Positions 3,184 through 49,000 of a stretch of DNA of 64,000 bases are shown in pieces. A program made the translations under genes and the position numbers. Every line of letters starts with the position of its first letter. The first letter of the stretch is position 1. The notes beneath the pieces were generated by a model. The model was not told the origin of the DNA. It was given only the letters and a program-made list of their open reading frames with translations, and made no database searches. The DNA lies in assembly GCA_964016885.1 (NCBI GenBank), contig OZ024757.1, forward strand, positions 6,758,001 through 6,822,000, written 5' to 3'. This DNA is from Eledone cirrhosa (taxonomy: Eukaryota).

Positions 3184-3248
3184 AGCAAGATATCTCCGTA
3201 ACATCAAGAGTTATGGCTGTGGAGGCACACCTAGTCAAACGTAAACAA

Positions 3249-3275: not shown

Positions 3276-3511
3276 TTGTTTACGTTTGACTAGGTGTGCC
3301 TCCACAGTCACAACTCTTGATGTTACGGAGATATCTTGCTGAAATTCATACCACCCACAGCCAATGAGTGTCCGCACATGTACCTCTAATTACACATCGA
3401 TCCGTCAACATCCGGCCGGCCCACGATCGACGCATAGGGCCGGATGGCCCGTTTTCAGTGAATTTTCACCGGAATCGATCTGTAATTACTGGTACATGTG
3501 CGGACACTCAT

Positions 3512-3707: not shown

Positions 3708-4046
3708 TGCCTGTGTGTGGTGTGATTTTCGAGAAAAACTGCCCATGCTAAATGAGGCAGCTGAAGTCCGCCGGCGAATGGTGTGCTTCGAAGAAAACGA
3801 ATTCGAAAATGACTATTTGCCGGCGGAATCACCTTTTCGGTCCTGGTCCGGCCGGATCTTGCCGGATCGATCGGAAATTTGTGGACCATGTTCGGAAGGC
3901 CATTGTGCATGTGTGGTGAAAAAAAGTTGTGTCGAAATCTTCTCGGAAAATAACGGATCGCCGGCGGAGATTGCCATTTCGATCGTGGGCCGGCCGGATC
4001 TTGTCGGATCGATTCGGACATATGTGCATCGTGTTCGCAAGGCTCT
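3708..4046 (-). repeat. Old diverged monomers (196 bp + 143 bp) ending the right arm
   Basis: GGCCGGATCTTGCCGGATCGATCGG...TGTTCGGAAGGCCATTGTGCATGTGTGGTG is repeated about 143 bp later as GGCCGGATCTTGTCGGATCGATTCGG...TGTTCGCAAGGC(T/C)CTTGTCTATGTGTGGTG. Both align to the monomer motifs GGCGGAG..TTTCGATCGTGGGCC and CATTGGCTGTGTGTGGTGTG. Confidence 0.85.
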
Positions 4047-4399
4047 TGTCTATGTGTGGTGTGATTTTCATAAAGAAATTCCGAAAAACCCAGTTTTAAA
4101 TCTGATATCGCCAAAGAATTTTGGGTATCAGATCGGGTTGAAAGGTATGGTTTCAAGTCGATCTGAAAGTCTAAAATGGAATTCACTCGGTTAGCTAACT
4201 TTTGATATATCGGAGATATCTTTCTGAAAATCACACCACACACTCCCAATGAGTGTCTGCACATGTACCAGTAATTACAGATGGATCCCACCACGGGCGG
4301 CCGGCCCACGATCGAAAAGGTTACTCCGAAGCACACCATTCGCCGGCGGACTTCATTTAGCATGGGCAGTTTTTCTTGAAGATCACACCACACACAGCC

Positions 4400-23300: not shown

Positions 23301-26300
23301 ATGTTGACGGATCGATGTGTAATTAGAAGTATATGTGCGGACACTCATTGGCTGTGCGTGGTATGCATTTCAGCAAGATATCTCCGTAACATCAAGAGTT
23401 ATGGCTGTGGAGGCACACCTAGTCAAACGTAAACAAGGTATGGAGCGTTTACGCTTCGCGATTTTGTTTACGTTTGACTAGGTGTGCCTCCACAGCCACA
23501 ACTCTTGATGTTACGGAGATATCTTGCTGAAATTCATACCACCCACAGCCAATGAGTGTCCGCATATGTACTTCTAATTACACATCGATCCGTCAACATC
23601 CGGCCGGCCCACGATCGACGCATAGGGCCGGATGGCCCGTTTTCAGTGAATTTTCACCGGAATCGATCTGTAATTACTGGTACATGTGCGGACACTCATT
23701 GGCTGTGTGTGGTGTGATTTTCGAGAAAAACTGCCCATGCTAAATGAGGAAGCTGAAGTCCGCCGGCGAATGGTGTGCTTCGAAGAAAACTAATTCGAAA
23801 ATGACCGCTTGCAGGCGGAGTAACCTTTTCGATCGTGGGCCAGCCGCCCGTGTTGGGATCCATCTGTAATTACTGGTACATGTGCGGACACACATTTGCT
23901 GTGTGTGGTGTGATTTTCAAGAAAAACTGCCCATGCTAAATGAGGAAGCTGAAGTCCGCCGGCGAATGGTGTGCTTCGAAGAAAACGAATTCGAAAATGA
24001 CTATTTGCCGGCGGAATCACCTTTTCGGTCCTGGTCCGGCCGGATCTTGCCGGATCGATCGGAAATTTGTGGACCATGTTCGGAAGGCCATTGTGCATGT
24101 GTGGTGAAAAAAAGTTGTGTCGAAATCTTCTCGGAAAATAACGGATCGCCGGCGGAGATTGCCATTTCGATCGTGGGCCGGCCGGATCTTGTCGGATCGA
24201 TTCGGACATATGTGCATCGTGTTCGCAAGGCCATTGTCTATGTGTGGTGTGATTTTCATAAAGAAATTCCGAAAAACCCAGTTTTAAATCTGATTTCGCC
24301 AAAGAATTTTGGCTATCAGATCGGGTTGAAAGGTATGGTTTCAAGTCGATCTGAAAGTCTAAAATGGAATTCACTCGGTTAGCTAACTTTTGATATATCG
24401 GAGATATCTTTCTGAAAATCACACCACACACTCCCAATGAGTGTCTGCACATGTACCAGTAATTACAGATGGATCCCACCACGGGCGGCCGGCCCACGAT
24501 CGAAAAGGTTACTCCGAAGCACACCATTCGCCGGCGGACTTCATTTAGCATGGGCAGTTTTTCTTGAAGATCACACCACACACAGCCAATGAGTGTCCGC
24601 ACATGTACCAGTAATTACAGATGGATCCCACTACGGGCGGCTGGCCCACGATCGAAAAGGTTACTCCGCCTGCAAACGGTCATTTTCGAATTCGTTTTCT
24701 TCAGCTTCCTCATTTAGCATGGGCAGTTTTTCTCGAAAATCACACCACACACAGCAAATCTGTGTCCGCACATGTACCAGTAATTACAGACCGATTCCGG
24801 TGAAAATTCACCGAAAACGGGCCATTCGGTCCTGTGCGTCGATCGTGGGCCGGCCGGATGTTGACGGATCGATGTGTAATTAAAAGTACATGTGCGGACA
24901 CTCATTGGCTGTGCGTGGTATGCATTTCAGCAAGATATCTCCGTAACATCAAGAGTTATGGCTGTGGAGGCACACCTAGTCAAACGTAAACAAGGTATGG
25001 AGCGTTTACGCTTCGCGATTTTGTTTACGTTTGACTAGGTGTGCCTCCACAGCCACAACTCTTGATGTTACGGAGATATCTTGCTGAAATGCATACCACG
25101 CACAGCCAATGAGTGTCCGCACATGTACCAGTAATTACACATCGATCCGTCAACATGCGGCCGGCCTACGATCGACGCATAGGGCCGGATGGCCCGTTTT
25201 CGGTGAATTTTCCCCGGAATCGATCTGTAATTACTGGTACATGTGCGGACACTCATTTGCTGTGTGTGGTGTGATTTTCAAGAAAAACTGCCCATGCTAA
25301 ATGAGGAAGCTGAAGTCCGCCGGCGAATGGTGTATTCGAAGAAAACGAATTCGAAAATGACTATTTGCCGGCGGAATCACCTTTTCGGTCCTGGTCCGGC
25401 CGGATCTTGCCGGATCGATCGGAAATTTATGGACCATGTTCGGAAGGCCATTGTGCATGTGTGGTGAAAAAAAGTTGTGTCGAAATCTTCTCGGAAAATA
25501 ACGGATCGCCGGCGGAGATTGCCATTTCGATCGTGGGCCGGCCGGATCTTGTCGGATCGATTCGGACATATGTGCATCGTGTTCGCAAGGCCCTTGTCTA
25601 TGTGTGGTGTGATTTTCATAAAGAAATTCCGAAAAACCCAGTTTTAAATCTGATATCGCCAAAGAATTTTGGCTATCAGATCGGGTTGAAAGGTATGGTT
25701 TCAAGTCGATCTGAAAGTCTAAAATGGAATTCACTCGGTTAGCTAACTTTTGATATATCGGAGATATCTTTCTGAAAATCACACCACACACTCCCAATGA
25801 GTGTCTGCACATGTACCAGTAATTACAGATGGATCCCACCACGGGCGGCCGGCCCACGATCGAAAAGGTTACTCCGAAGCACACCACTCGCCGGCGGACT
25901 TCATTTAGCATGGGCAGTTTTTCTTGAAGATCACACCACACACAGCCAATGAGTGTCCGCACATGTACCAGTAATTACAGATGGATCCCACTACGGGCGG
26001 CTGGCCCACGATCGAAAAGGTTACTCCGCCTGCAAACGGTCATTTTCGAATTCGTTTTCTTCGAAGCACACCATTCGCCGGCGGACTTCAGCTGCCTCAT
26101 TTAGCATGGGCAGCTTTTCTCGAAAATCACACCACAAACAGCCAATGAGTGTCCGCACATGTACCAGTAATTACAGATGGATCACACCACGGGCGGCTGG
26201 CCCACGATCGAAAAGGTTACTCCGCCTGCAAACGGTCATTTTCGAATTCGTTTTCTTCGAAGCACACCATTCGCCGGCGGACTTCAGCTTCCTCATTTAG

Positions 26301-29300
26301 CATGGGCAGTTTTTCTCGAAAATCACACCACACACAGCAAATCTGTGTCCGCACATGTACCAGTAATTACAGATCGATTCCGGTGAAAATTCACCGAAAA
26401 CGGGCCATTCGGCCCTGTGCGTCGATCGTGGGCCGGCCGGATGTTGACGGATCGATGTGTAATTAGAAGTATATGTGCGGACACTCATTGGCTGTGCGTG
26501 GTATGCATTTCAGCAAGATATCTCCGTAACATCAAGAGTTATGGCTGTGGAGGCACACCTAGTCAAACGTAAACAAGGTATGGAGCGTTTACGCTTCGCG
26601 ATTTTGTTTACGTTTGACTAGGTGTGCCTCCACAGCCACAACTCTTGATGTTACGGAGATATCTTGCTGAAATTCATACCACCCACAGCCAATGAGTGTC
26701 CGCATATGTACTTCTAATTACACATCGATCCGTCAACATCCGGCCGGCCCACGATCGACGCATAGGGCCGGATGGCCCGTTTTCAGTGAATTTTCACCGG
26801 AATCGATCTGTAATTACTGGTACATGTGCGGACACTCATTGGCTGTGTGTGGTGTGATTTTCGAGAAAAACTGCCCATGCTAAATGAGGAAGCTGAAGTC
26901 CGCCGGCGAATGGTGTGCTTCGAAGAAAACTAATTCGAAAATGACCGCTTGCAGGCGGAGTAACCTTTTCGATCGTGGGCCAGCCGCCCGTGTTGGGATC
27001 CATCTGTAATTACTGGTACATGTGCGGACACACATTTGCTGTGTGTGGTGTGATTTTCAAGAAAAACTGCCCATGCTAAATGAGGAAGCTGAAGTCCGCC
27101 GGCGAATGGTGTGCTTCGAAGAAAACGAATTCGAAAATGACTATTTGCCGGCGGAATCACCTTTTCGGTCCTGGTCCGGCCGGATCTTGCCGGATCGATC
27201 GGAAATTTGTGGACCATGTTCGGAAGGCCATTGTGCATGTGTGGTGAAAAAAAGTTGTGTCGAAATCTTCTCGGAAAATAACGGATCGCCGGCGGAGATT
27301 GCCATTTCGATCGTGGGCCGGCCGGATCTTGTCGGATCGATTCGGACATATGTGCATCGTGTTCGCAAGGCCATTGTCTATGTGTGGTGTGATTTTCATA
27401 AAGAAATTCCGAAAAACCCAGTTTTAAATCTGATTTCGCCAAAGAATTTTGGCTATCAGATCGGGTTGAAAGGTATGGTTTCAAGTCGATCTGAAAGTCT
27501 AAAATGGAATTCACTCGGTTAGCTAACTTTTGATATATCGGAGATATCTTTCTGAAAATCACACCACACACTCCCAATGAGTGTCTGCACATGTACCAGT
27601 AATTACAGATGGATCCCACCACGGGCGGCCGGCCCACGATCGAAAAGGTTACTCCGAAGCACACCATTCGCCGGCGGACTTCATTTAGCATGGGCAGTTT
27701 TTCTTGAAGATCACACCACACACAGCCAATGAGTGTCCGCACATGTACCAGTAATTACAGATGGATCCCACTACGGGCGGCTGGCCCACGATCGAAAAGG
27801 TTACTCCGCCTGCAAACGGTCATTTTCGAATTCGTTTTCTTCAGCTTCCTCATTTAGCATGGGCAGTTTTTCTCGAAAATCACACCACACACAGCAAATC
27901 TGTGTCCGCACATGTACCAGTAATTACAGACCGATTCCGGTGAAAATTCACCGAAAACGGGCCATTCGGTCCTGTGCGTCGATCGTGGGCCGGCCGGATG
28001 TTGACGGATCGATGTGTAATTAAAAGTACATGTGCGGACACTCATTGGCTGTGCGTGGTATGCATTTCAGCAAGATATCTCCGTAACATCAAGAGTTATG
28101 GCTGTGGAGGCACACCTAGTCAAACGTAAACAAGGTATGGAGCGTTTACGCTTCGCGATTTTGTTTACGTTTGACTAGGTGTGCCTCCACAGCCACAACT
28201 CTTGATGTTACGGAGATATCTTGCTGAAATGCATACCACGCACAGCCAATGAGTGTCCGCACATGTACCAGTAATTACACATCGATCCGTCAACATGCGG
28301 CCGGCCTACGATCGACGCATAGGGCCGGATGGCCCGTTTTCGGTGAATTTTCACCGGAATCGATCTGTAATTACTGGTACATGTGCGGACACTCATTTGC
28401 TGTGTGTGGTGTGATTTTCAAGAAAAACTGCCCATGCTAAATGAGGAAGCTGAAGTCCGCCGGCGAATGGTGTATTCGAAGAAAACGAATTCGAAAATGA
28501 CTATTTGCCGGCGGAATCACCTTTTCGGTCCTGGTCCGGCCGGATCTTGCCGGATCGATCGGAAATTTATGGACCATGTTCGGAAGGCCATTGTGCATGT
28601 GTGGTGAAAAAAAGTTGTGTCGAAATCTTCTCGGAAAATAACGGATCGCCGGCGGAGATTGCCATTTCGATCGTGGGCCGGCCGGATCTTGTCGGATCGA
28701 TTCGGACATATGTGCATCGTGTTCGCAAGGCCCTTGTCTATGTGTGGTGTGATTTTCATAAAGAAATTCCGAAAAACCCAGTTTTAAATCTGATATCGCC
28801 AAAGAATTTTGGCTATCAGATCGGGTTGAAAGGTATGGTTTCAAGTCGATCTGAAAGTCTAAAATGGAATTCACTCGGTTAGCTAACTTTTGATATATCG
28901 GAGATATCTTTCTGAAAATCACACCACACACTCCCAATGAGTGTCTGCACATGTACCAGTAATTACAGATGGATCCCACCACGGGCGGCCGGCCCACGAT
29001 CGAAAAGGTTACTCCGAAGCACACCATTCGCCGGCGGACTTCATTTAGCATGGGCAGTTTTTCTTGAAGATCACACCACACACAGCCAATGAGTGTCCGC
29101 ACATGTACCAGTAATTACAGATGGATCCCACTACGGGCGGCTGGCCCACGATCCAAAAGGTTACTCCGCCTGCAAACGGTCATTTTCGAATTCGTTTTCT
29201 TCGAAGCACACCATTCGCCGGCGGACTTCAGCTGCCTCATTTAGCATGGGCAGCTTTTCTCGAAAATCACACCACAAACAGCCAATGAGTGTCCGCACAT

Positions 29301-32300
29301 GTACCAGTAATTACAGATGGATCACACCACGGGCGGCTGGCCCACGATCGAAAAGGTTACTCCGCCTGCAAACGGTCATTTTCGAATTCGTTTTCTTCGA
29401 AGCACACCATTCGCCGGCGGACTTCAGCTTCCTCATTTAGCATGGGCAGTTTTTCTCGAAAATCACACCACACACAGCAAATCTGTGTCCGCACATGTAC
29501 CAGTAATTACAGACCGATTCCGGTGAAAATTCACCGAAAACGGGCCATTCGGTCCTGTGCGTCGATCGTGGGCCGGCCGGATGTTGACGGATCGATGTGT
29601 AATTAGAAGTACATGTGCGGACACTCATTGGCTGTGCGTGGTATGCATTTCAGCAAGATATCTCCGTAACATCAAGAGTTATGGCTGTGGAGGCACACCT
29701 AGTCAAACGTAAACAAGGTATGGAGCGTTTACGCTTCGCGATTTTGTTTACGTTTGACTAGGTGTGCCTCCACAGCCACAACTCTTGATGTTACGGAGAT
29801 ATCTTGCTGAAATTCATACCACCCACAGCCAATGAGTGTCCGCACATGTACTTCTAATTACACATCGATCCGTCAACATCCGGCCGGCCCACGATCGACG
29901 CATAGGGCCGGATGGCCCGTTTTCAGTGAATTTTCACCGGAATCGATCTGTAATTACTGGTACATGTGCGGACACTCATTGGCTGTGTGTGGTGTGATTT
30001 TCGAGAAAAACTGCCCATGCTAAATGAGGCAGCTGAAGTCCGCCGGCGAATCGTGTGCTTCGAAGAAAACTAATTCGAAAATGACCGCTTGCAGGCGGAG
30101 TAACCTTTTCGATCGTGGGCCAGCCGCCCCTGTTGGGATCCATCTGTAATTACTGGTACATGTGCGGACACACATTTGCTGTGTGTGGTGTGATTTTCAT
30201 AAAGAAATTCCGAAAAACCCAGTTTTAAATCTGATTTCGCCAAAGAATTTTGGCTATCAGATCGGGTTGAAAGGTATGGTTTCAGGTCGATCTGAAAGTC
30301 TAAAATGGAATTCACTCGGTTAGCTAACTTTTGATATATCGGAGATATCTTTCTGAAAATCACACCACACACTCCCAATGAGTGTCTGCACATGTACCAG
30401 TAATTACAGATGGATCCCACCACGGGCGGCCGGCCCACGATCGAAAAGGTTACTCCGAAGCACACCATTCGCCGGCGGACTTCATTTAGCATGGGCAGTT
30501 TTTCTTGAAGATCACACCACACACAGCCAATGAGTGTCCGCACATGTACCAGTAATTACAGATGGATCCCACTACGGGCGGCTGGCCCACGATCGAAAAG
30601 GTTACTCCGCCTGCAAACGGTCATTTTCGAATTCGTTTTCTTCGAAGCACACCATTCGCCGGCGGACTTCAGCTGCCTCATTTAGCATGGGCAGCTTTTC
30701 TCAAAAATCACACCACACACAGCCAATGAGTGTCCGCACATGTACCAGTAATTACAGATGGATCACACCACGGGCGGCTGGCCCACGATCGAAAAGGTTA
30801 CTCCGCCTGCAAACGGTCATTTTCGAATTCGTTTTCTTCGAAGCACACCATTCGCCGGCGGACTTCAGCTTCCTCATTTAGCATGGGCAGTTTTTCTCGA
30901 AAATCACACCACACACAGCAAATCTGTGTCCGCACATGTACCAGTAATTACAGATCGATTCCGGTGAAAATTCACCGAAAACGGGCCATTCGGCCCTGTG
31001 CGTCGATCGTGGGCCGGCCGGATGTTGACGGATCGATGTGTAATTAGAAGTATATGTGCGGACACTCATTGGCTGTGCGTGGTATGCATTTCAGCAAGAT
31101 ATCTCCGTAACATCAAGAGTTATGGCTGTGGAGGCACACCTAGTCAAACGTAAACAAGGTATGGAGCGTTTACGCTTCGCGATTTTGTTTACGTTTGACT
31201 AGGTGTGCCTCCACAGCCACAACTCTTGATGTTACGGAGATATCTTGCTGAAATTCATACCACCCACAGCCAATGAGTGTCCGCATATGTACTTCTAATT
31301 ACACATCGATCCGTCAACATCCGGCCGGCCCACGATCGACGCATAGGGCCGGATGGCCCGTTTTCAGTGAATTTTCACCGGAATCGATCTGTAATTACTG
31401 GTACATGTGCGGACACTCATTGGCTGTGTGTGGTGTGATTTTCGAGAAAAACTGCCCATGCTAAATGAGGAAGCTGAAGTCCGCCGGCGAATGGTGTGCT
31501 TCGAAGAAAACTAATTCGAAAATGACCGCTTGCAGGCGGAGTAACCTTTTCGATCGTGGGCCAGCCGCCCGTGTTGGGATCCATCTGTAATTACTGGTAC
31601 ATGTGCGGACACACATTTGCTGTGTGTGGTGTGATTTTCAAGAAAAACTGCCCATGCTAAATGAGGAAGCTGAAGTCCGCCGGCGAATGGTGTGCTTCGA
31701 AGAAAACGAATTCGAAAATGACTATTTGCCGGCGGAATCACCTTTTCGGTCCTGGTCCGGCCGGATCTTGCCGGATCGATCGGAAATTTGTGGACCATGT
31801 TCGGAAGGCCATTGTGCATGTGTGGTGAAAAAAAGTTGTGTCGAAATCTTCTCGGAAAATAACGGATCGCCGGCGGAGATTGCCATTTCGATCGTGGGCC
31901 GGCCGGATCTTGTCGGATCGATTCGGACATATGTGCATCGTGTTCGCAAGGCCATTGTCTATGTGTGGTGTGATTTTCATAAAGAAATTCCGAAAAACCC
32001 AGTTTTAAATCTGATTTCGCCAAAGAATTTTGGCTATCAGATCGGGTTGAAAGGTATGGTTTCAAGTCGATCTGAAAGTCTAAAATGGAATTCACTCGGT
32101 TAGCTAACTTTTGATATATCGGAGATATCTTTCTGAAAATCACACCACACACTCCCAATGAGTGTCTGCACATGTACCAGTAATTACAGATGGATCCCAC
32201 GACGGGCGGCCGGCCCACGATCGAAAAGGTTACTCCGAAGCACACCATTCGCCGGCGGACTTCATTTAGCATGGGCAGTTTTTCTTGAAGATCACACCAC

Positions 32301-34311
32301 ACACAGCCAATGAGTGTCCGCACATGTACCAGTAATTACAGATGGATCCCACTACGGGCGGCTGGCCCACGATCGAAAAGGTTACTCCGCCTGCAAACGG
32401 TCATTTTCGAATTCGTTTTCTTCAGCTTCCTCATTTAGCATGGGCAGTTTTTCTCGAAAATCACACCACACACAGCAAATCTGTGTCCGCACATGTACCA
32501 GTAATTACAGACCGATTCCGGTGAAAATTCACCGAAAACGGGCCATTCGGTCCTGTGCGTCGATCGTGGGCCGGCCGGATGTTGACGGATCGATGTGTAA
32601 TTAAAAGTACATGTGCGGACACTCATTGGCTGTGCGTGGTATGCATTTCAGCAAGATATCTCCGTAACATCAAGAGTTATGGCTGTGGAGGCACACCTAG
32701 TCAAACGTAAACAAGGTATGGAGCGTTTACGCTTCGCGATTTTGTTTACGTTTGACTAGGTGTGCCTCCACAGCCACAACTCTTGATGTTACGGAGATAT
32801 CTTGCTGAAATGCATACCACGCACAGCCAATGAGTGTCCGCACATGTACCAGTAATTACACATCGATCCGTCAACATGCGGCCGGCCTACGATCGACGCA
32901 TAGGGCCGGATGGCCCGTTTTCGGTGAATTTTCACCGGAATCGATCTGTAATTACTGGTACATGTGCGGACACTCATTTGCTGTGTGTGGTGTGATTTTC
33001 AAGAAAAACTGCCCATGCTAAATGAGGAAGCTGAAGTCCGCCGGCGAATGGTGTATTCGAAGAAAACGAATTCGAAAATGACTATTTGCCGGCGGAATCA
33101 CCTTTTCGGTCCTGGTCCGGCCGGATCTTGCCGGATCGATCGGAAATTTATGGACCATGTTCGGAAGGCCATTGTGCATGTGTGGTGAAAAAAAGTTGTG
33201 TCGAAATCTTCTCGGAAAATAACGGATCGCCGGCGGAGATTGCCATTTCGATCGTGGGCCGGCCGGATCTTGTCGGATCGATTCGGACATATGTGCATCG
33301 TGTTCGCAAGGCCCTTGTCTATGTGTGGTGTGATTTTCATAAAGAAATTCCGAAAAACCCAGTTTTAAATCTGATATCGCCAAAGAATTTTGGTTATCAG
33401 ATCGGGTTGAAAGGTATGGTTTCAAGTCGATCTGAAAGTCTAAAATGGAATTCACTCGGTTAGCTAACTTTTGATATATCGGAGATATCTTTCTGAAAAT
33501 CACACCACACACTCCCAATGAGTGTCTGCACATGTACCAGTAATTACAGATGGATCCCACCACGGGCGGCCGGCCCACGATCGAAAAGGTTACTCCGAAG
33601 CACACCATTCGCCGGCGGACTTCATTTAGCATGGGCAGTTTTTCTTGAAGATCACACCACACACAGCCAATGAGTGTCCGCACATGTACCAGTAATTACA
33701 GATGGATCCCACTACGGGCGGCTGGCCCACGATCCAAAAGGTTACTCCGCCTGCAAACGGTCATTTTCGAATTCGTTTTCTTCGAAGCACACCATTCGCC
33801 GGCGGACTTCAGCTGCCTCATTTAGCATGGGCAGCTTTTCTCGAAAATCACACCACAAACAGCCAATGAGTGTCCGCACATGTACCAGTAATTACAGATG
33901 GATCACACCACGGGCGGCTGGCCCACGATCGAAAAGGTTACTCCGCCTGCAAACGGTCATTTTCGAATTCGTTTTCTTCGAAGCACACCATTCGCCGGCG
34001 GACTTCAGCTTCCTCATTTAGCATGGGCAGTTTTTCTCGAAAATCACACCACACACAGCAAATCTGTGTCCGCACATGTACCAGTAATTACAGACCGATT
34101 CCGGTGAAAATTCACCGAAAACGGGCCATTCGGTCCTGTGCGTCGATCGTGGGCCGGCCGGATGTTGACGGATCGATGTGTAATTAGAAGTACATGTGCG
34201 GACACTCATTGGCTGTGCGTGGTATGCATTTCAGCAAGATATCTCCGTAACATCAAGAGTTATGGCTGTGGAGGCACACCTAGTCAAACGTAAACAAGGT
34301 ATGGAGCGTTT
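14334..34311. repeat. Block of shortened units forming nested higher-order repeats (about 3140, 6128 and 4581 bp)
   Basis: Spacings are 1405,1583,1557,1583,1405,1583,1557,1583,1557,1583,1441,1557,1583. A 169-bp monomer (TTTTCTTC^AGCTTCC) and a 1-bp-deleted GTGTATTCG flank alternate axes. The variant CACGATCCAAAAG occurs at ~29154 and ~33735 (+4581). Confidence 0.92.
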
Positions 34312-37099
34312 ACGCTTCGCGATTTTGTTTACGTTTGACTAGGTGTGCCTCCACAGCCACAACTCTTGATGTTACGGAGATATCTTGCTGAAATTCATAC
34401 CACCCACAGCCAATGAGTGTCCGCACATGTACTTCTAATTACACATCGATCCGTCAACATCCGGCCGGCCCACGATCGACGCATAGGGCCGGATGGCCCG
34501 TTTTCAGTGAATTTTCACTGGAATCGATCTGTAATTACTGGTACATGTGCGGACACTCATTGGCTGTGTGTGGTGTGATTTTCGAGAAAAACTGCCCATG
34601 CTAAATGAGGAAGCTGAAGTCCGCCGGCGAATGGTGTGCTTCGAAGAAAACTAATTCGAAAATGACCGCTTGCAGGCGGAGTAACCTTTTCGATCGTGGG
34701 CCAGCCGCCCGTGTTGGGATCCATCTGTAATTACTGGTACATGTGCGGACACACATTTGCTGTGTGTGGTGTGATTTTCAAGAAAAACTGCCCATGCTAA
34801 ATGAGGAAGCTGAAGTCCGCCGGCGAATGGTGTGCTTCGAAGAAAACGAATTCGAAAATGACTATTTGCCGGCGGAATCACCTTTTCGGTCCTGGTCCGG
34901 CCGGATCTTGCCGGATCGATCGGAAATTTGTGGACCATGTTCGGAAGGCCATTGTGCATGTGTGGTGATAAAAGTTGTGTCGAAATCTTCTCGGAAAATA
35001 ACGGATCGCCGGCGGAGATTGCCATTTCGATCGTGGGCCGGCCGGATCTTGTCGGATCGATTCGGACATATGTGCATCGTGTTCGCAAGGCCATTGTCTA
35101 TGTGTGGTGTGATTTTCATAAAGAAATTCCGAAAAACCCAGTTTTAAATCTGATTTCGCCAAAGAATTTTGGCTATCAGATCGGGTTGAAAGGTATGGTT
35201 TCACGTCGATCTGAAAGTCTAAAATGGAATTCACTCGGTTAGCTAACTTTTGATATATCGGAGATATCTTTCTGAAAATCACACCACACACTCCCAATGA
35301 GTGTCTGCACATGTACCAGTAATTACAGATGGATCCCACCACGGGCGGCCGGCCCACGATCGAAAAGGTTACTCCGAAGCACACCATTCGCCGGCGGACT
35401 TCATTTAGCATGGGCAATTTTTCTTGAAGATCACACCACACACAGCCAATGAGTGTCCGCACATGTACCAGTAATTACAGATGGATCCCACTACGGGCGG
35501 CTGGCCCACGATCGAAAAGGTTACTCCGCCTGCAAACGGTCATTTTCGAATTCGTTTTCTTCGAAGCACACCATTCGCCGGCGGACTTCAGCTGCCTCAT
35601 TTAGCATGGGCAGCTTTTCTCGAAAATCACACCACACACAGCCAATGAGTGTCCGCACATGTACCAGTAATTACAGATGGATCACACCACGGGCGGCTGG
35701 CCCACGATCGAAAAGGTTACTCCGCCTGCAAACGGTCATTTTCGAATTCGTTTTCTTCGAAGCACACCATTCGCCGGCGGACTTCAGCTTCCTCATTTAG
35801 CATGGGCAGTTTTTCTCGAAAATCACACCACACACAGCAGATCTGTGTCCGCACATGTACCAGTAATTACAGATCGATTCCGGTGAAAATTCACCGAAAA
35901 CGGGCCATTCGGTCCTGTGCGTCGATCGTGGGCCGGCCGGATGTTGACGGATCGATGTGTAATTAGAAGTACATGTGCGGACACTCATTGGCTGTGCGTG
36001 GTATGCATTTCAGCAAGATATCTCCGTAACATCAAGAGTTATGGCTGTGGAGGCACACCTAGTCAAACGTAAACAAGGTATGGAGCGTTTACGCTTCGCG
36101 ATTTTGTTTACGTTTGACTAGGTGTGCCTCCACAGCCACAACTCTTGATGTTACGGAGATATCTTGCTGAAATGCATACCACGCACAGCCAATGAGTGTC
36201 CGCACATGTACCAGTAATTACACATCGATCCGTCAACATGCGGCCGGCCTACGATCGACGCATAGGGCCGGATGGCCCGTTTTCGGTGAATTTTCACCGG
36301 AATCGATCTGTAATTACTGGTACATGTGCGGACACAGATCTGCTGTGTGTGGTGTGATTTTCGAGAAAAACTGCCCATGCTAAATGAGGAAGCTGAAGTC
36401 CGCCGGCGAATGGTGTGCTTCGAAGAAAACGAATTCGAAAATGACCGTTTGCAGGCGGAGTAACCTTTTCGATCGTGGGCCAGCCGCCCGTGGTGTGATC
36501 CATCTGTAATTACTGGTACATGTGCGGACACTCATTGGCTGTGTGTGGTGTGATTTTCGAGAAAAGCTGCCCATGCTAAATGAGGCAGCTGAAGTCCGCC
36601 GGCGAATGGTGTGCTTCGAAGAAAACGAATTCGAAAATGACTATTTGCCGGCGGAATCACCTTTTCGGTCCTGGTCCGGCCGGATCTTGCCGGATCGATC
36701 GGAAATTTGTGGACCATGTTCGGAAGGCCATTGTGCATGTGTCGTGAAAAAAAGATGTGTCGAAATCTTCTCGGAAAATTACGGATCGCCGGCGGAGATT
36801 GCCATTTCGATCGTGGGCCGGCCGGATCTTGTCGGATCGATTCGGACATATGTGCATCGTGTTCGCAAGGCCCTTGTCTATGTGTGGTGTGATTTTCATA
36901 AAGAAATTCCGAAAAACCCAGTTTTAAATCTGATTTCGCCAAAGAATTTTGGGTAGCAGATCGGGTTGAAAGGTATGGTTTCAAGTCGATCTGAAAGTCT
37001 AAAATGGAATTCACTCGGTTAGCTAACTTTTGATATATCGGAGATATCTTTCTGAAAATCACACCACACACTCCCAATGAGTGTCTGCACATGTACCAG

Positions 37100-40000
37100 T
37101 AATTACAGATGGATCCCACCACGGGCGGCCGGCCCACGATCGAAAAGGTTACTCCGAAGCACACCATTCGCCGGCGGACTTCATTTAGCATGGGCAGTTT
37201 TTCTTGAAGATCACACCACACACAGCCAATGAGTGTCCGCACATGTACCAGTAATTACAGATGGATCCCACCACGGGCGGCTGGCCCACGATCGAAAAGG
37301 TTACTCCGCCTGCAAACGGTCATTTTCGAATTCGTTTTCTTCGAAGCACACCATTCGCCGGCGGACTTCAGCTTGCTCATTTAGCATGGGCAGTTTTTCT
37401 TGAAAATCACACCACACACAGCAAATGTGTGTCCGCACATGTACCAGTAATTACAGATCGATTCCGGTGAAAATTCACTGAAAACGGGCCATTCGGCCCT
37501 GTGCGTCGATCGTGGGCCGGCCGGATGTTGACGGATCGATGTGTACTTAGAAGTACATGTGCGGACACTCATTGGCTGTGCGTGGTATGCATTTCAGCAA
37601 GATATCTCCGTAACATCAAGAGTTATGGCTGTGGAGGCACACCTAGTCAAACGTAAACAAGGTCTGGAGCGTTTACGCTTCGCGATTTTGTTTACGTTTG
37701 ACTAGGTGTGCCTCCACATCCACAACTCTTGATGTTACGGAGATATCTTGCTGAAATGCATACCACGCACAGCCAATGAGTGTCCGCACATGTACCAGTA
37801 ATTACACATCGATCCGTCAACATGCGGCCGGCCTACGATCGACGCATAGGGCCGGATGGCCCGTTTTCGGTGAATTTTCACCGGAATCGATCTGTAATTA
37901 CTGGTACATGTGCGGACACTCATTTGCTGTGTGTGGTGTGATTTTCAAGAAAAACTGCCCATGCTAAATGAGGAAGCTGAAGTCCGCCGGCGAATGGTGT
38001 GCTTCGAAGAAAACTAATTCGAAAATGACCGTTTGCAGGCGGAGTAACCTTTTCGATCGTGGGCCAGCCGCCCGTGGTGGGATCCATCTGTAATTACTGG
38101 TACATGTGCGGACACTCATTGGCTGTGTGTGGTGTGATTTTCGAGAAAAACTGCCCATGCTAAATGAGGAAGCTGAAGTCCGCCGGCGAATGGTGTGCTT
38201 CGAAGAAAACTAATTCGAAAATGACCGTTTGCAGGCGGAGTAACCTTTTCGATCGTGGGCCAGCCGCCCCTGGTGGGATCCATCTGGAATTACTGGTACA
38301 TGTGCGGACACACATTTGCTGTGTGTGGTGTGATTTTCAAGAAAAACTGCCCATGCTAAATGAGGAAGCTGAAGTCCGCCGGCGAATGGTGTATTCGAAG
38401 AAAACGAATTCGAAAATGACTATTTGCCGGCGGAATCACCTTTTCGGTCCTGGTCCGGCCGGATCTTGCCGGATCGATCGGAAATTTATGGACCATGTTC
38501 GGAAGGCCATTGTGCATGTGTGGTGAAAAAAAGTTGTGTCGAAATCTTCTCGGAAAATAACGGATCGCCGGCGGAGATTGCCATTTCGATCGTGGGCCGG
38601 CCGGATCTTGTCGGATCGATTCGGACATATGTGCATCGTGTTCGCAAGGCCCTTGTCTATGTGTGGTGTGATTTTCATAAAGAAATTCCGAAAAACCCAG
38701 TTTTAAATCTGATTTCGCCAAAGAATTTTGGGTATCAGATCGGGTTGAAAGGTATGGTTTCAAGTCGATCTGAAAGTCTAAAATGGAATTCACTCGGTTA
38801 GCTAACTTTTGATATATCGGAGATATCTTTCTGAAAATCACACCACACACTCCCAATGAGTGTCTGCACATGTACCAGTAATTACAGATGGATCCCACCA
38901 CGGGCGGCCGGCCCACGATCGAAAAGGTTACTCCGAAGCACACCATTCGCCGGCGGACTTCATTTAGCATGGGCAGTTTTTCTTGAAGATCACACCACAC
39001 ACAGCCAATGAGTGTCCGCACATGTACCAGTAATTACAGATGGATCCCACCACGGGCGGCTGGCCCACGATCGAAAAGGTTACTCCGCCTGCAAACGGTC
39101 ATTTTCGAATTCGTTTTCTTCGAAGCACACCATTCGCCGGCGGACTTCAGCTTGCTCATTTAGCATGGGCAGTTTTTCTTGAAAATCACACCACACACAG
39201 CAAATGTGTGTCCGCACATGTACCAGTAATTACAGATCGATTCCGGTGAAAATTCACTGAAAACGGGCCATTCGGCCCTGTGCGTCGATCGTGGGCCGGC
39301 CGGATGTTGACGGATCGATGTGTACTTAGAAGTACATGTGCGGACACTCATTGGCTGTGCGTGGTATGCATTTCAGCAAGATATCTCCGTAACATCAAGA
39401 GTTATGGCTGTGGAGGCACACCTAGTCAAACGTAAACAAGGTCTGGAGCGTTTACGCTTCGCGATTTTGTTTACGTTTGACTAGGTGTGCCTCCACATCC
39501 ACAACTCTTGATGTTACGGAGATATCTTGCTGAAATGCATACCACGCACAGCCAATGAGTGTCCGCACATGTACCAGTAATTACACATCGATCCGTCAAC
39601 ATGCGGCCGGCCTACGATCGACGCATAGGGCCGGATGGCCCGTTTTCGGTGAATTTTCACCGGAATCGATCTGTAATTACTGGTACATGTGCGGACACTC
39701 ATTTGCTGTGTGTGGTGTGATTTTCAAGAAAAACTGCCCATGCTAAATGAGGAAGCTGAAGTCCGCCGGCGAATGGTGTGCTTCGAAGAAAACTAATTCG
39801 AAAATGACCGTTTGCAGGCGGAGTAACCTTTTCGATCGTGGGCCAGCCGCCCGTGGTGGGATCCATCTGTAATTACTGGTACATGTGCGGACACTCATTG
39901 GCTGTGTGTGGTGTGATTTTCGAGAAAAACTGCCCATGCTAAATGAGGAAGCTGAAGTCCGCCGGCGAATGGTGTGCTTCGAAGAAAACTAATTCGAAAA

Positions 40001-43000
40001 TGACCGTTTGCAGGCGGAGTAACCTTTTCGATCGTGGGCCAGCCGCCCCTGGTGGGATCCATCTGGAATTACTGGTACATGTGCGGACACACATTTGCTG
40101 TGTGTGGTGTGATTTTCAAGAAAAACTGCCCATGCTAAATGAGGAAGCTGAAGTCCGCCGGCGAATGGTGTATTCGAAGAAAACGAATTCGAAAATGACT
40201 ATTTGCCGGCGGAATCACCTTTTCGGTCCTGGTCCGGCCGGATCTTGCCGGATCGATCGGAAATTTATGGACCATGTTCGGAAGGCCATTGTGCATGTGT
40301 GGTGAAAAAAAGTTGTGTCGAAATCTTCTCGGAAAATAACGGATCGCCGGCGGAGATTGCCATTTCGATCGTGGGCCGGCCGGATCTTGTCGGATCGATT
40401 CGGACATATGTGCATCGTGTTCGCAAGGCCCTTGTCTATGTGTGGTGTGATTTTCATAAAGAAATTCCGAAAAACCCAGTTTTAAATCTGATTTCGCCAA
40501 AGAATTTTGGGTATCAGATCGGGTTGAAAGGTATGGTTTCAAGTCGATCTGAAAGTCTAAAATGGAATTCACTCGGTTAGCTAACTTTTGATATATCGGA
40601 GATATCTTTCTGAAAATCACACCACACACTCCCAATGAGTGTCTGCACATGTACCAGTAATTACAGATGGATCCCACCACGGGCGGCCGGCCCACGATCG
40701 AAAAGGTTACTCCGAAGCACACCATTCGCCGGCGGACTTCATTTAGCATGGGCAGTTTTTCTTGAAGATCACACCACACACAGCCAATGAGTGTCCGCAC
40801 ATGTACCAGTAATTACAGATGGATCCCACCACGGGCGGCTGGCCCACGATCGAAAAGGTTACTCCGCCTGCAAACGGTCATTTTCGAATTCGTTTTCTTC
40901 GAAGCACACCATTCGCCGGCGGACTTCAGCTTGCTCATTTAGCATGGGCAGTTTTTCTTGAAAATCACACCACACACAGCAAATGTGTGTCCGCACATGT
41001 ACCAGTAATTACAGATCGATTCCGGTGAAAATTCACTGAAAACGGGCCATTCGGCCCTGTGCGTCGATCGTGGGCCGGCCGGATGTTGACGGATCGATGT
41101 GTACTTAGAAGTACATGTGCGGACACTCATTGGCTGTGCGTGGTATGCATTTCAGCAAGATATCTCCGTAACATCAAGAGTTATGGCTGTGGAGGCACAC
41201 CTAGTCAAACGTAAACAAGGTCTGGAGCGTTTACGCTTCGCGATTTTGTTTACGTTTGACTAGGTGTGCCTCCACATCCACAACTCTTGATGTTACGGAG
41301 ATATCTTGCTGAAATGCATACCACGCACAGCCAATGAGTGTCCGCACATGTACCAGTAATTACACATCGATCCGTCAACATGCGGCCGGCCTACGATCGA
41401 CGCATAGGGCCGGATGGCCCGTTTTCGGTGAATTTTCACCGGAATCGATCTGTAATTACTGGTACATGTGCGGACACTCATTTGCTGTGTGTGGTGTGAT
41501 TTTCAAGAAAAACTGCCCATGCTAAATGAGGAAGCTGAAGTCCGCCGGCGAATGGTGTGCTTCGAAGAAAACTAATTCGAAAATGACCGTTTGCAGGCGG
41601 AGTAACCTTTTCGATCGTGGGCCAGCCGCCCGTGGTGGGATCCATCTGTAATTACTGGTACATGTGCGGACACTCATTGGCTGTGTGTGGTGTGATTTTC
41701 GAGAAAAACTGCCCATGCTAAATGAGGAAGCTGAAGTCCGCCGGCGAATGGTGTGCTTCGAAGAAAACTAATTCGAAAATGACCGTTTGCAGGCGGAGTA
41801 ACCTTTTCGATCGTGGGCCAGCCGCCCCTGGTGGGATCCATCTGGAATTACTGGTACATGTGCGGACACACATTTGCTGTGTGTGGTGTGATTTTCAAGA
41901 AAAACTGCCCATGCTAAATGAGGAAGCTGAAGTCCGCCGGCGAATGGTGTATTCGAAGAAAACGAATTCGAAAATGACTATTTGCCGGCGGAATCACCTT
42001 TTCGGTCCTGGTCCGGCCGGATCTTGCCGGATCGATCGGAAATTTATGGACCATGTTCGGAAGGCCATTGTGCATGTGTGGTGAAAAAAAGTTGTGTCGA
42101 AATCTTCTCGGAAAATAACGGATCGCCGGCGGAGATTGCCATTTCGATCGTGGGCCGGCCGGATCTTGTCGGATCGATTCGGACATATGTGCATCGTGTT
42201 CGCAAGGCCCTTGTCTATGTGTGGTGTGATTTTCATAAAGAAATTCCGAAAAACCCAGTTTTAAATCTGATTTCGCCAAAGAATTTTGGGTATCAGATCG
42301 GGTTGAAAGGTATGGTTTCAAGTCGATCTGAAAGTCTAAAATGGAATTCACTCGGTTAGCTAACTTTTGATATATCGGAGATATCTTTCTGAAAATCACA
42401 CCACACACTCCCAATGAGTGTCTGCACATGTACCAGTAATTACAGATGGATCCCACCACGGGCGGCCGGCCCACGATCGAAAAGGTTACTCCGAAGCACA
42501 CCATTCGCCGGCGGACTTCATTTAGCATGGGCAGTTTTTCTTGAAGATCACACCACACACAGCCAATGAGTGTCCGCACATGTACCAGTAATTACAGATG
42601 GATCCCACTACGGGCGGCTGGCCCACGATCGAAAAGGTTACTCTGCCTGCAAACGGTCATTTTCGAATTCGTTTTCTTCGAAGCACACCATTCGCCGGCG
42701 GACTTCAGCTGCCTCATTTAGCATGGGCAGCTTTTCTGAAAATCACACCACAAACAGCCAATGAGTGTCCGCACATGTACCAGTAATTACAGATGGATCA
42801 CACCACGGGCGGCTGGCCCACGATCGAAAAGGTTACTCCGCCTGCAAACGGTCATTTTCGAATTCGTTTTCTTCGAAGCACACCATTCGCCGGCGGACTT
42901 CAGCTTCCTCATTTAGCATGGGCAGTTTTTCTCGAAAATCACACCACATACAGCAAATCTGTGTCCGCACATGTACCAGTAATTACAGATCGATTCCGGT

Positions 43001-46000
43001 GAAAATTCACCGAAAACGGGCCATTCGGTCCTGTGCGTCGATCGTGGGCCGGCCGGATGTTGACGGATCGATGTGTAATTAGAAGTACATGTGCGGACAC
43101 TCATTGGCTGTGCGTGGTATGCATTTCAGCAAGATATCTCCGTAACATCAAGAGTTATGGCTGTGGAGGCACACCTAGTCAAACGTAAACAAGGTATGGA
43201 GCGTTTACGCTTCGCGATTTTGTTTACGTTTGACTAGGTGTGCCTCCACATCGACAACTCTTGATGTTACGGAGATATCTTGCTGAAATTCATACCACCC
43301 ACAGCCAATGAGTGTCCGCACATGTACTTCTAATTACACATCGATCCGTCAACATCCGGCCGGCCCACGATCGACGCATAGGGCCGGATGGCCCGTTTTC
43401 AGTGAATTTTCACCGGAATCGATCTGTAATTACTGGTACATGTGCGGACACTCATTGGCTGTGTGTGGTGTGATTTTCGAGAAAAACTGCCCATGCTAAA
43501 TGAGGCAGCTGAAGTCCGCCGGCGAATCGTGTGCTTCGAAGAAAACTAATTCGAAAATGACCGCTTGCAGGCGGAGTAACCTTTTCGATCGTGGGCCAGC
43601 CGCCCCTGTTGGGATCCATCTGTAATTACTGGTACATGTGCGGACACACATTTGCTGTGTGTGGTGTGATTTTCAAGAAAAACTGCCCATGCTAAATGAG
43701 GAAGCTGAAGTCCGCCGGCGAATGGTGTGCTTCGAAGAAAACGAATTCGAAAATGACTATTTGCCGGCGGAATCACCTTTTCGGTCCTGGTCCGGCCGGA
43801 TCTTGCCGGATCGATCGGAAATTTGTGGACCATGTTCGGAAGGCCATTGTGCATATGTGGTGAAAAAAAGTTGTGTCGAAATCTTCTCGGAAAATAACGG
43901 ATCGCCGGCGGAGATTGCCATTTCGATCGTGGGCCGGCCGGATCTTGTCGGATCGATTCGGACATATGTGCATCGTGTTCGCAAGGCCCTTGTCTATGTG
44001 TGGTGTGATTTTCATAAAGAAATTCCGAAAAACCCAGTTTTAAATCTGATTTCGCCAAAGAATTTTGGGTATCAGATCGGGTTGAAAGGTATGGTTTCAA
44101 GTCGATCTGAAAGTCTAAAATGGAATTCACTCGGTTAGCTAACTTTTGATATATCGGAGATATCTTTCTGAAAATCACACCACACACTCCCAATGAGTGT
44201 CTGCACATGTACCAGTAATTACAGATGGATCCCACCACGGGCGGCCGGCCCACGATCGAAAAGGTTACTCCGAAGCACACCATTCGCCGGCGGACTTCAT
44301 TTAGCATGGGCAGTTTTTCTTGAAGATCACACCACACACAGCCAATGAGTGTCCGCACATGTACCAGTAATTACAGATGGATCCCACTACGGGTGGCTGG
44401 CCCACGATCGAAAAGGTTACTCCGCCTGCAAACGGTCATTTTCGAATTCGTTTTCTTCGAAGCACACCATTCGCCGGCGGACTTCAGCTGCCTCATTTAG
44501 CATGGGCAGTTTTTCTCGAAAATCACACCACACACAGCCAATGAGTGTCCGCACATGTACCAGTAATTACAGATGGATCCCACCACGGGCGGCTGGCCCA
44601 CGATCGAAAAGGTTACTCCGCCTGCAAACGGTCATTTTCGAATTCGTTTTCTTCGAAGCACACCATTCGCCGGCGGACTTCAGCTTCCTCATTTAGCATG
44701 GGCAGTTTTTCTTGAAAATCACACCACACACAGCAAATGTGTGTCCGCACATGTACCAGTAATTACAGATCGATTCCGGTGAGAATACACTGAAAACGGG
44801 CCATTCGGCCCTGTGCGTCGATCGTGGGCCGGCCGGATGTTGACGGATCGATGTGTACTTAGAAGTACATGTGCGGACACTCATTGGCTGTGCGTGGTAT
44901 GCATTTCAGCAAGATATCTCCGTAACATCAAGAGTTATGGCTGTGGAGGCACACCTAGTCAAACGTAAACAAGGTCTGGAGCGTTTACGCTTCGCGATTT
45001 TGTTTACGTTTGACTAGGTGTGCCTCCACATCGACAACTCTTGATGTTACGGAGATATCTTGCTGAAATGCATACCACGCACAGCCAATGAGTGTCCGCA
45101 CATGTACTTCTAATTACACATCGATCCGTCAACATCCGGCCGGCCCACGATCGACGCATAGGGCCGGATGGCCCGTTTTCAGTGAATTTTCACCGGAATC
45201 GATCTGTAATTACTGGTACATGTGCGGACACTCATTGGCTGTGTGTGGTGTGATTTTCGAGAAAAACTGCCCATGCTAAATGAGGCAGCTGAAGTCCGCC
45301 GGCGAATCGTGTGCTTCGAAGAAAACTAATTCGAAAATGACCGCTTGCAGGCGGAGTAACCTTTTCGATCGTGGGCCAGCCGCCCCTGTTGGGATCCATC
45401 TGTAATTACTGGTACATGTGCGGACACACATTTGCTGTGTGTGGTGTGATTTTCAAGAAAAACTGCCCATGCTAAATGAGGACGCTGAAGTCCGCCGGCG
45501 AATGGTGTGCTTCGAAGAAAACGAATTCGAAAATGACTATTTGCCGGCGGAATCACCTTTTCGGTCCTGGTCCGGCCAGATCTTGCCGGATCGATCGGAA
45601 ATTTGTGGACCATGTTCGGAAGGACATTGTGCATATGTGGTGAAAAAAAGTTGTGTCGAAATCTTCTCGGAAAATAACGGATCGCCGGCGGAGATTGCCA
45701 TTTCGATCGTGGGCCGGCCGGATCTTGTCGGATCGATTCGGACATATGTACATCGTGTTCGCAAGGCCCTTGTCTATGTGTGGTGTGATTTTCATAAAGA
45801 AATTCCGAAAAACCCAGTTTTAAATCTGATTTCGCCAAAGAATTTTGGCTATCAGATCGGGTTGAAAGGTATGGTTTCAAGTCGATCTGAAAGTCTAAAA
45901 TGGAATTCACTCGGTTAGCTAACTTTTGATATATCGGAGATATCTTTCTGAAAATCACACCACACACTCCCAATGAGTGTCTGCACATGTACCAGTAATT

Positions 46001-49000
46001 ACAGATGGATCCCACCACGGGCGGCCGGCCCACGATCGAAAAGGTTACTCCGAAGCACACCATTCGCCGGCGGACTTCATTTAGCATTTGCAGTTTTTCT
46101 TGAAGATCACACCACACACAGCCAATGAGTGTCCGCACATGTACCAGTAATTACAGATGGATCCCACTACGGGCGGCTGGCCCACGATCGAAAAGGTTAC
46201 TCCGCCTGCAAACGGTCATTTTCGAATTCGTTTTCTTCGAAGCACACCATTCGCCGGCGGACTTCAGCTGCCTCATTTAGCATGGGCAGCTTTTCTCGAA
46301 AATCACACCACACACAGCCAATGAGTGTCCGCACATCTACCAGTAATTACAGATGGATCACACCACGGGCGGCTGGCCAACGATCGAAAAGGTTACTCCG
46401 CCTGCAAACGGTCATTTTCGAATTCGTTTTCTTCGAAGCACACCATTCGCCGGCGGACTTCAGCTTCCTCATTTAGCATGGGCAGTTTTTCTTGAAAATC
46501 ACACCACACACAGCAAATGTGTGTCCGCACATGTACCAGTAATTACAGATCGATTCCGGTGAAAATACACTGAAAACGGGCCATTCGGCCCTGTGCGTCG
46601 ATCGTGGGCCGGCCGGATGTTGACGGATCGATGTGTACTTAGAAGTACATGTGCGGACACTCATTGGCTGTGCGTGGTATGCATTTCAGCAAGATATCTC
46701 CGTAACATCAAGAGTTATGGCTGTGGAGGCACACCTAGTCAAACGTAAACAAGGTCTGGAGCGTTTACGCTTCGCGATTTTGTTTACGTTTGACTAGGTG
46801 TGCCTCCACATCGACAACTCTTGATGTTACGGAGATATCTTGCTGAAATGCATACCACGCACAGCCAATGAGTGTCCGCACATGTACTTCTAATTACACA
46901 TCGATCCGTCAACATCCGGCCGGCCCACGATCGACGCATAGGGCCGGATGGCCCGTTTTCAGTGAATTTTCACCGGAATCGATCTGTAATTACTGGTACA
47001 TGTGCGGACACTCATTGGCTGTGTGTGGTGTGATTTTCGAGAAAAACTGCCCATGCTAAATGAGGCAGCTGAAGTCCGCCGGCGAATCGTGTGCTTCGAA
47101 GAAAACTAATTCGAAAATGACCGCTTGCAGGCGGAGTAACCTTTTCGATCGTGGGCCAGCCGCCCCTGTTGGGATCCATCTGTAATTACTGGTACATGTG
47201 CGGACACACATTTGCTGTGTGTGGTGTGATTTTCAAGAAAAACTGCCCATGCTAAATGAGGACGCTGAAGTCCGCCGGCGAATGGTGTGCTTCGAAGAAA
47301 ACGAATTCGAAAATGACTATTTGCCGGCGGAATCACCTTTTCGGTCCTGGTCCGGCCAGATCTTGCCGGATCGATCGGAAATTTGTGGACCATGTTCGGA
47401 AGGACATTGTGCATATGTGGTGAAAAAAAGTTGTGTCGAAATCTTCTCGGAAAATAACGGATCGCCGGCGGAGATTGCCATTTCGATCGTGGGCCGGCCG
47501 GATCTTGTCGGATCGATTCGGACATATGTACATCGTGTTCGCAAGGCCCTTGTCTATGTGTGGTGTGATTTTCATAAAGAAATTCCGAAAAACCCAGTTT
47601 TAAATCTGATTTCGCCAAAGAATTTTGGCTATCAGATCGGGTTGAAAGGTATGGTTTCAAGTCGATCTGAAAGTCTAAAATGGAATTCACTCGGTTAGCT
47701 AACTTTTGATATATCGGAGATATCTTTCTGAAAATCACACCACACACTCCCAATGAGTGTCTGCACATGTACCAGTAATTACAGATGGATCCCACCACGG
47801 GCGGCCGGCCCACGATCGAAAAGGTTACTCCGAAGCACACCATTCGCCGGCGGACTTCATTTAGCATTTGCAGTTTTTATTGAAGATCACACCACACACA
47901 GCCAATGAGTGTCCGCACATGTACCAGTAATTACAGATGGATCCCACTACGGGCGGCTGGCCCACGATCGAAAAGGTTACTCCGCCTGCAAACGGTCATT
48001 TTCGAATTCGTTTTCTTCGAAGCACACCATTCGCCGGCGGACTTCAGCTGCCTCATTTAGCATGGGCAGCTTTTCTCGAAAATCACACCACACACAGCCA
48101 ATGAGTGTCCGCACATCTACCAGTAATTACAGATGGATCACACCACGGGCGGCTGGCCAACGATCGAAAAGGTTACTCCGCCTGCAAACGGTCATTTTCG
48201 AATTCGTTTTCTTCGAAGCACACCATTCGCCGGCGGACTTCAGCTTCCTCATTTAGCATGGGCAGTTTTTCTCGAAAATCACACCACACACAACAAATGT
48301 GTGTCCGCACATGTACCAGTAATTACAGATCGATTCCGGTGAAAATTCACTGAAAACGGGCCATTCGGCCCTGTGCGTCGATCGTGGGCCGGCCGGATGT
48401 TGACGGATCGATGTGTACTTAGAAGTACATGTGCGGACACTCATTGGCTGTGCGTGGTATGCATTTCAGCAAGATATCTCCGTAACATCAAGAGTTATGG
48501 CTGTGGAGGCACACCTAGTCAAACGTAAACAAGGTCTGGAGCGTTTACGCTTCGCGATTTTGTTTACGTTTGACTAGGTGTGCCTCCACATCCACAACTC
48601 TTGATGTTACGGAGATATCTTGCTGAAATGCATACCATGCACAGCCAATGAGTGTCCGCACATGTACCAGTAATTACACATCGATCCGTCAACATGCGGC
48701 CGGCCTACGATCGACGCATAGGGCCGGATGGCCCGTTTTCGGTGAATTTTCACCGGAATCGATCTGTAATTACTGGTACATGTGCGGACACTCATTTGCT
48801 GTGTGTGGTGTGATTTTCAAGAAAAACTGCCCATGCTAAATGAGGAAGCTGAAGTCCGCCGGCGAATGGTGTGCTTCGAAGAAAACTAATTCGAAAATGA
48901 CCGTTTGCAGGCGGAGTAACCTTTTCGATCGTGGGCCAGCCGCCCGTGGTGGCATCCATCTGTAATTACTGGTACATGTGCGGACACTCATTGGCTGTGT

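Follow-up and report, generated by a model that had tools for sequence, protein, structure and literature searches.

One monomer of a palindromic satellite array, unit 22 of the 64-kb stretch of DNA analyzed here (the window), carries a right arm that mirrors its own left arm perfectly over a segment in which the arms of comparable units differ. A recent one-way transfer, in which the left arm was copied onto its partner in the same unit, is well supported and probably genuine. As its most likely cause we favor, with moderate confidence, a template switch by fold-back, for which the intact inner hairpin of the unit would have served as primer. Unit 22 alone is one event, of a mechanism whose class is known and whose setting (a satellite monomer) and length are new, and with it the arm-to-arm self-copying documented for short-loop palindromes reaches several hundred bases in length.

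Array architecture and the symmetric tract of unit 22

The array occupies the full window, with no array edge inside it. The loop motif is present 38 times, in + orientation in 38 of 38 cases, and the units are spaced 1405-1976 bp apart with none missing (commonest spacing 1780). Every unit, approximately 1.78 kb in length, is an imperfect palindrome. Positions within a unit are given as d, the distance from the palindrome axis, which for unit 22 lies at 36090. The arms extend over d14-551 (538 bp) on either side of the 27-nt loop, with arm-specific tails beyond, and each combines a single-copy inner part with a variable number of 196-bp sub-repeats. Left and right arms are about 96% alike; among the 19 other units of standard structure they diverge by 4.3% in d14-181 and by 4.0% in d182-551. 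The right arm of unit 22 has the commonest right-arm length, 895. Fourteen open reading frames of 61-236 aa lie over the unit, and an Rfam search over 34300-38000 returned no match.

Table 1. Features of the array, of unit 22 and of one further candidate exchange (positions in the window)
Feature	Position	Strand	Remarks
Satellite array	1..64000		38 palindromic units; arms with a variable number of 196-bp sub-repeats
Probable donor segment, unit 22 left arm	35539..35908	+	First 196-bp sub-repeat and most of the second
Private allele G, unit 22 left arm	35840	+	In 0/36 other left arms
Small internal hairpin, d194-210	36284..36300, mirror 35880-35896		Within the interval where the tract begins
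Inner uncopied palindrome	35909..36271		Flanks the loop with d14-181 on either side, 9 mismatches; predicted to form the priming hairpin
Asymmetric 27-nt loop of unit 22	36077..36103	+	Orientation constant in all 38 units
Probable recipient segment, unit 22 right arm, maximal 370 bp	36272..36641	+	Identical only to own left arm
Minimal tract attributed to copying	36336..36566	+	Left-arm alleles at 36336, 36337, 36340, 36431, 36496, 36566
Mirrored private allele C, unit 22 right arm	36340	+	d250; in 0/37 other right arms
Right-arm-specific tail	36642..36985	+	Past the homology boundary; nearest tails are those of units 0 and 32
Candidate older micro-tract, right arm of unit 33	55443..55467	+	25 bp or less, one site, G at d128

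The two segments named donor and recipient in Table 1 are perfect reverse complements, with 0 mismatches over 370 bp (d182-551), and the inner arms (d14-181) of the same unit differ at nine positions, in keeping with the sequence-only reading that the arms still differ closer to the axis. In the other 37 units the longest perfect in-register run is 123 bp, and when the right arm of unit 22 is left out the best left-right match in any register, among 868 distinct haplotype pairs, is 174 bp. All 19 of the other standard-structure units carry 12-19 mismatches in d182-551 (mean 14.8); the Poisson chance of finding none is 4e-7, a value to be read in the knowledge that the units are non-independent and that the interval was chosen after the fact. 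The copied tract measures at least 231 bp (d246-476) and at most 370 bp (d182-551), so that the length of at least 230 bp first put forward is correct as a minimum. The maximal tract stops at d551, and in each of the six units checked arm homology also stops there.

The recipient segment shows 13-14 differences from R05 and R03, right arms of the same inner type, and inside d181 the right half of unit 22 is identical to eight other type-B right arms. As single-stranded DNA the inner palindrome folds at -213.4 kcal/mol, and a slightly longer stretch has a fold z of -46. Hairpin folds of the whole unit reach -676 to -682 kcal/mol in three ordinary units versus -738 in unit 22. Around the small internal hairpin, 7 of the 23 positions in d194-216 are variable, versus 46 of 319 elsewhere (p = 0.066, with the interval chosen after the fact), and right arm 21 has a private T at d208 (34519), also a CpG site, that restores pairing with A195. 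In its right tail unit 22 carries three alleles common only to units 0 and 32 and one common only to unit 0, and this tail is unlike those of the type-B units matched by its inner part.

The private single-nucleotide variant of the left arm that had first drawn attention to the unit is mirrored exactly on the right arm, private here meaning private within the 64-kb window. On the + strand, CAGCAGATCT occurs a single time in 64 kb, at 35835, as does AGATCTGCTG, at 36336. There are 22 singleton alleles in the array, and only that at d250 is mirrored, the remaining 21 being unmirrored. Of 37 other right arms, 0 carry the allele that the unit 22 right arm has at d246, at d247 or at d250; of the 28 other right arms with a homologous site, 0 carry its allele at d406 or at d476. 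These five diagnostic alleles are thus absent from all other right arms, and right arms of this kind are not common elsewhere in the window.

It is very improbable that no arm-to-arm copying took place, and that the pattern instead reflects recurrent mutation, the retention of ancestral alleles, or exchange between the right arm's own 196-bp sub-repeats. Two of the six alleles in the tract speak for such an origin, as the d341 allele is also found in 8 of 37 other right arms and A246 also in the last right-arm sub-repeat. Because d341 and d246 occur in other right-arm sub-repeats, the case for copying rests on d247, d250, d406 and d476. The contexts of d247, d406 and d476 occur once each on the + strand versus 24, 19 and 21 times on the - strand, and that of d250 only once on each strand, all of which argues against an origin without copying. 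The left-diagnostic states claimed for the right arm fared accordingly: those at 36496 (d406) and 36566 (d476) stand, and that at 36431 (d341), with AAAACGAATTCG, proved not to be left-specific. GTGTGATCC has one occurrence on the + strand versus 19 reverse complements, and AAAAGCTGCC one versus 21; AAAACGAATTCG is part of the last right-arm sub-repeat and for that reason occurs 38 times on the + strand. At 36337 the left-type allele makes up about 1% of depth in one of the sequencing runs considered below (X9), and is therefore likely to be derived rather than ancestral. A reciprocal double crossover between sisters was set aside, as it requires two exchanges within 370 bp.

Donor, direction and related sequence

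Among 74 other arms, the left arm of unit 22 is the only one identical to the right arm over the tract. Both sub-repeats of the tract match the left arm's own in register, and over d182-490 the right arm shows 0 differences from that arm, against 3 and 9 from the left arms of units 21 and 23, respectively. The left arm carries no right-arm alleles. It differs from the left-arm majority at three sites, one private and two common among left arms, and within d182-551 it departs only at d250 and d453. Since the left arm is unchanged and without right-arm imports, the transfer was one-way, from left to right.

Trees built by interval, a check proposed with the original claim, place the tract with its own left arm. 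They contain 51 standard-structure arms (24 of 75 arms, with sub-repeat deletions, being omitted), and from them we use only the placement of the unit 22 right arm, as the clade test left identical rows free; the bootstrap values are not fully settled. Over d14-181 this arm groups with the type-B right arms (97/96), and over d182-551 it is identical to its own left arm and lies inside a left-arm clade (96/94). Trees and donor identity agree, and at the level of sequence they support a copy that ran one way, from the left arm to its own right arm, with the donor lying across the loop and not in a neighboring unit.

Sequence related to the array was found in public sequencing runs. Eighteen runs, among which no reads of the individual assembled here were found, were compared by shared words; the best share was 0.53, and runs under six organism labels contain 0.40-0.53 of the words of the unit. 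Four of the 18 (X1, X9, X12 and X16) were aligned, over 36240-36495 only, and six rows at 0.05-0.12 and one at 0.00 were left unused. At 36340 these runs have T in 98-100% of depth (494,830 of 495,133 in X9; 1218 of 1234 and 1554 of 1590 reads in X16; all in X1 and X12). They carry the left-type letter at 36250 and at 36263, the latter in 99% of X9 and in 109/109 and 164/165 of X16. T at 36340 combined with left-type letters at 36250 and 36263 indicates that the runs represent related arrays and not the haplotype of unit 22, and they neither confirm nor refute the copy. The non-T remainder at 36340 could include the private allele, so this allele may not be private beyond the window. In searches of metagenome contigs, neither the hybrid-junction pattern, present once in the window, nor the loop pattern had a match (0 each).

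The runs also bear on the wider family. In X9 the depth is about 1.96 million over the 196-bp sub-repeat versus 14-51 thousand over the single-copy inner arm (36240-36266), and head-to-tail sub-repeat joints of 193-194 bases are present; in the organism of that run the sub-repeat family may form a plain satellite of far greater size. Record 9 of X12, under another organism label, is a 232-base contig with the layout of the inner left arm, including a short internal inversion.

An artefact of amplification, consensus or polishing, in which a fold-back chimera or reverse-mapped reads overwrote the right arm, is improbable. The four runs compared carry other alleles and no listed piece spans the stretch, and strand-displacement amplification is described as making chimeric reads (PMC9484634), both of which leave some room for such an origin. 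Against it, the 21 of 22 singletons elsewhere that are unmirrored show that there was no general overwriting, and reads with the private allele would be expected to map best to their own left arm. A chimera would also need two switches with an in-register return, and long stretches of sibling units agree base for base, as they would if the assembly is accurate.

Proposed fold-back synthesis and competing routes

The copy leaves the inner 168 bp and the loop unchanged, the arm length unaltered and the loop uninverted. In the fold-back route, left-to-right synthesis, during replication restart or break repair, would displace the new strand in single-stranded form and would stop at d182-245 of the right arm. 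The new strand would then snap into a hairpin on the inner stem, and the polymerase would lengthen it on the left-arm template as far as d476-551, close to or at the limit of arm homology. The extended strand would re-anneal in register to the original template, the mismatched duplex would be fixed by repair or the next replication, and later unit-to-unit turnover could spread or erase the copied arm. These polymerase steps are proposed from geometry only. Retention of the nine inner mismatches suits a primer stem that had already been made from the right-arm template.

The main rival is break-induced ectopic gene conversion without hairpin priming, the mechanism proposed for Y palindromes, in which a double-strand break in the right arm would be repaired by strand invasion of a nearby left arm on the same or the sister chromatid; we consider it a serious alternative, though an unlikely one. 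A one-way continuous tract of a few hundred bases with an uninverted loop is what non-crossover repair produces, and conversions are reported to far exceed inversions in human palindrome P6 (PMC3723533). However, break repair with a free choice of donor could have drawn, within the window alone, on 37 right arms in the same orientation and on the left arms of 36 other units. Right arms are closer to one another than to left arms (mean differences over d14-355 of 8.3 right-right versus 14.0 left-right) and are the donors that would be expected, and this route gives no reason for the sparing of the inner stem. With fold-back priming, the partner arm would be the very donor that a hairpin puts in register.

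Fold-back synthesis has precedents in part. Two-switch homogenization of arms is described as established for short repeats (PMC8604942), and in yeast break repair the arm copied first is reported to act as template (bioRxiv 10.1101/2023.08.09.552703). Weighing against it, the tract of 231-370 bp is far longer than the catalogued short-range switches, which in apes have a reported median of 12 and a maximum of 128 nt (PMC7954356), and fold-back would require several hundred bases of the new strand to come free. Proximity alone could favor the partner arm, and there is a single clear event. From sequence alone, fold-back would look the same as invasion of the left arm of the sister chromatid, or as repair of a full hairpin by a patch begun at the base.

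A composite at an array junction, in which a strand folded back and returned to a different unit so that the tract patches the join of two blocks, is a further route that we rate as quite improbable. The inner right arm matches type-B arms that all lie to the left (units 3-20), the units with the nearest tails are both of type A, and the left-right differentiation of the window is highest at the cut after unit 22 (0.331). That peak, however, belongs to a plateau of 0.25-0.33 over cuts 20-33, and just two other units have the tail of unit 22. Two other tail alleles are common to type-A and type-B units, which argues that shuffling between inner part and tail is common without any fold-back.

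Among known systems, quasi-palindrome template switching (the Ripley model; the four-point model) works much like the fold-back route: within an imperfect inverted repeat, one arm templates its partner, which is overwritten in a continuous segment with two switches and an in-register return (PMC8604942, PMC7954356). The return in unit 22 was likewise in register, given the 0 mismatches over the tract, the normal tail and the arm length of 895. Unit 22 differs in falling outside the short-range class of tens of bases (231-370 bp versus a maximum of 128 nt described for apes), in having an inner stem that stays imperfect, and in its tandem setting, in which turnover of the array can amplify what was copied. 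Quasi-palindrome arms in yeast genes are reported to measure 7-16 bp.

The mammalian Y and X palindromes also show non-reciprocal transfer between arms without inversion of the spacer, and in this respect the analogy with primate Y palindromes first suggested for unit 22 fits, though only loosely. It fails in degree and scale, as Y-palindrome arms are described as more than 99.9% identical versus about 96% here, and P6 is reported to have arms of about 100 kb, a 46-kb spacer and conversion tracts with a mean of 2068 bp (PMC3723533), versus arms of 538 bp, about 200 times shorter, and a 27-nt loop in the satellite. With so short a loop a direct hairpin is possible, unlike in Y palindromes, and many same-orientation donors compete in a satellite array.

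Satellites with a dyad inside the monomer share the head-to-tail arrangement of monomers with long inverted segments. In the 1061-bp satellite of Tribolium brevicornis and in TmSat2 of T. madens the tandem monomers are described as large imperfect palindromes (PMC13081366). The arms here measure 538 bp, versus the approximately 470 bp reported there as "most prominent" (PMC13081366), and the word "conversion" is absent from the main text of that paper. Read from one right arm to the next left arm, the unit also resembles the foldback transposon Tetris, whose layout is described as running from a unique outer domain through ~200-bp tandem repeats in variable number and a middle part to the inverted copy (PMC4079207); the long repeats of another such element, Galileo, have been proposed to attract conversion (PMC3573991). 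The likeness is one of layout; here whole units are in tandem, and the donor in unit 22 is the arm across the 27-nt linker rather than an arm of the same would-be element. Among the titles and opening parts of abstracts listed from open PubMed Central and bioRxiv text, we found neither arm-to-arm copying inside a satellite monomer nor a description of the satellite of this window.

Copying, turnover and the symmetry of the array

Few satellite monomers are both long and symmetric, and in those that are, the symmetry is often taken as a sign of selection for centromeric hairpins or cruciforms. Unit 22 offers a dated, phased example of a neutral process able to restore symmetry, with donor, recipient and limits readable. 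It had been suggested that such copying could be how symmetry is maintained, and this part of the sequence-only reading is no more than a possibility. It is compatible with a rate estimated from one event: one long tract versus 22 singletons corresponds to 10.5-16.8 copied sites per mutation, from which a formula of our own gives an equilibrium arm divergence of 6-9.5%, close to the 4% seen. With one event, the 95% range extends from about 1% divergence to no maintenance at all, and the rate is biased upward by the choice of a window for its event, and downward if the singletons include errors. On the other side, the mean left-right distance is the same within units as between them (14.06 versus 13.97), and three sites in d14-355 are fixed differences between left and right arms, from which it follows that arm-to-arm copying is slower than unit-to-unit turnover. 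The data are matched equally well by a young palindrome in slow decay.

A broader proposal, that palindromic satellite monomers repair their own symmetry through long hairpin-primed fold-back at about 10-17 times the point-mutation rate per site, with turnover spreading the result, is tentative and in our estimate rather doubtful. If true, fold-back copying would suffice for the arm identity of about 96%, and symmetry would arise without selection for hairpins. The array would also be a natural multi-copy reporter, from which the direction, tract ends and rate of fold-back could be read in one assembly.

Other candidate exchanges in the array are smaller or ambiguous. G at d128 is present in the right arms of units 33, 34, 35 and 37 (55446, 57226, 59006 and 62566), 4 of 38 right arms, and in 12 of 37 left arms, including all four partner arms of these units. 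It is a possible older left-to-right micro-copy; at a single site, recurrent mutation is also possible. Matches of up to 174 bp between right arm 0 and the left arms of units 33-35 and 37 were rejected as cases of conversion, because one sub-repeat is missing from these left arms and the alleles are present in the second sub-repeats of left arms. In the left arms of units 23-25, 27, 28 and 31 (axes 37674, 39453, 41232, 44986, 46766 and 52150) the first sub-repeat has C247 and A273, alleles also found in the last sub-repeats of right arms; for units 27, 28 and 31 its match to the last right-arm sub-repeat extends, out of register, over 140 bp. Whether this is an older right-to-left copy or an ancestral state is ambiguous, because in run X9 they are the dominant alleles at both sites, and they may be ancestral.

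The array also has structure above the level of the unit. Positions 14300-34300 form a higher-order block in which full units alternate with deleted units, with periods of 2988, 3140 and 4581. The deleted units have left arms of 495 or 647, right arms of 698 and a common 27-bp deletion. Unit 22 (35210-36990) lies at the edge of a homogenized block: one loop variant and three left-arm alleles are confined to 12 units to its right, and G216 and A118 are confined to units on its left.
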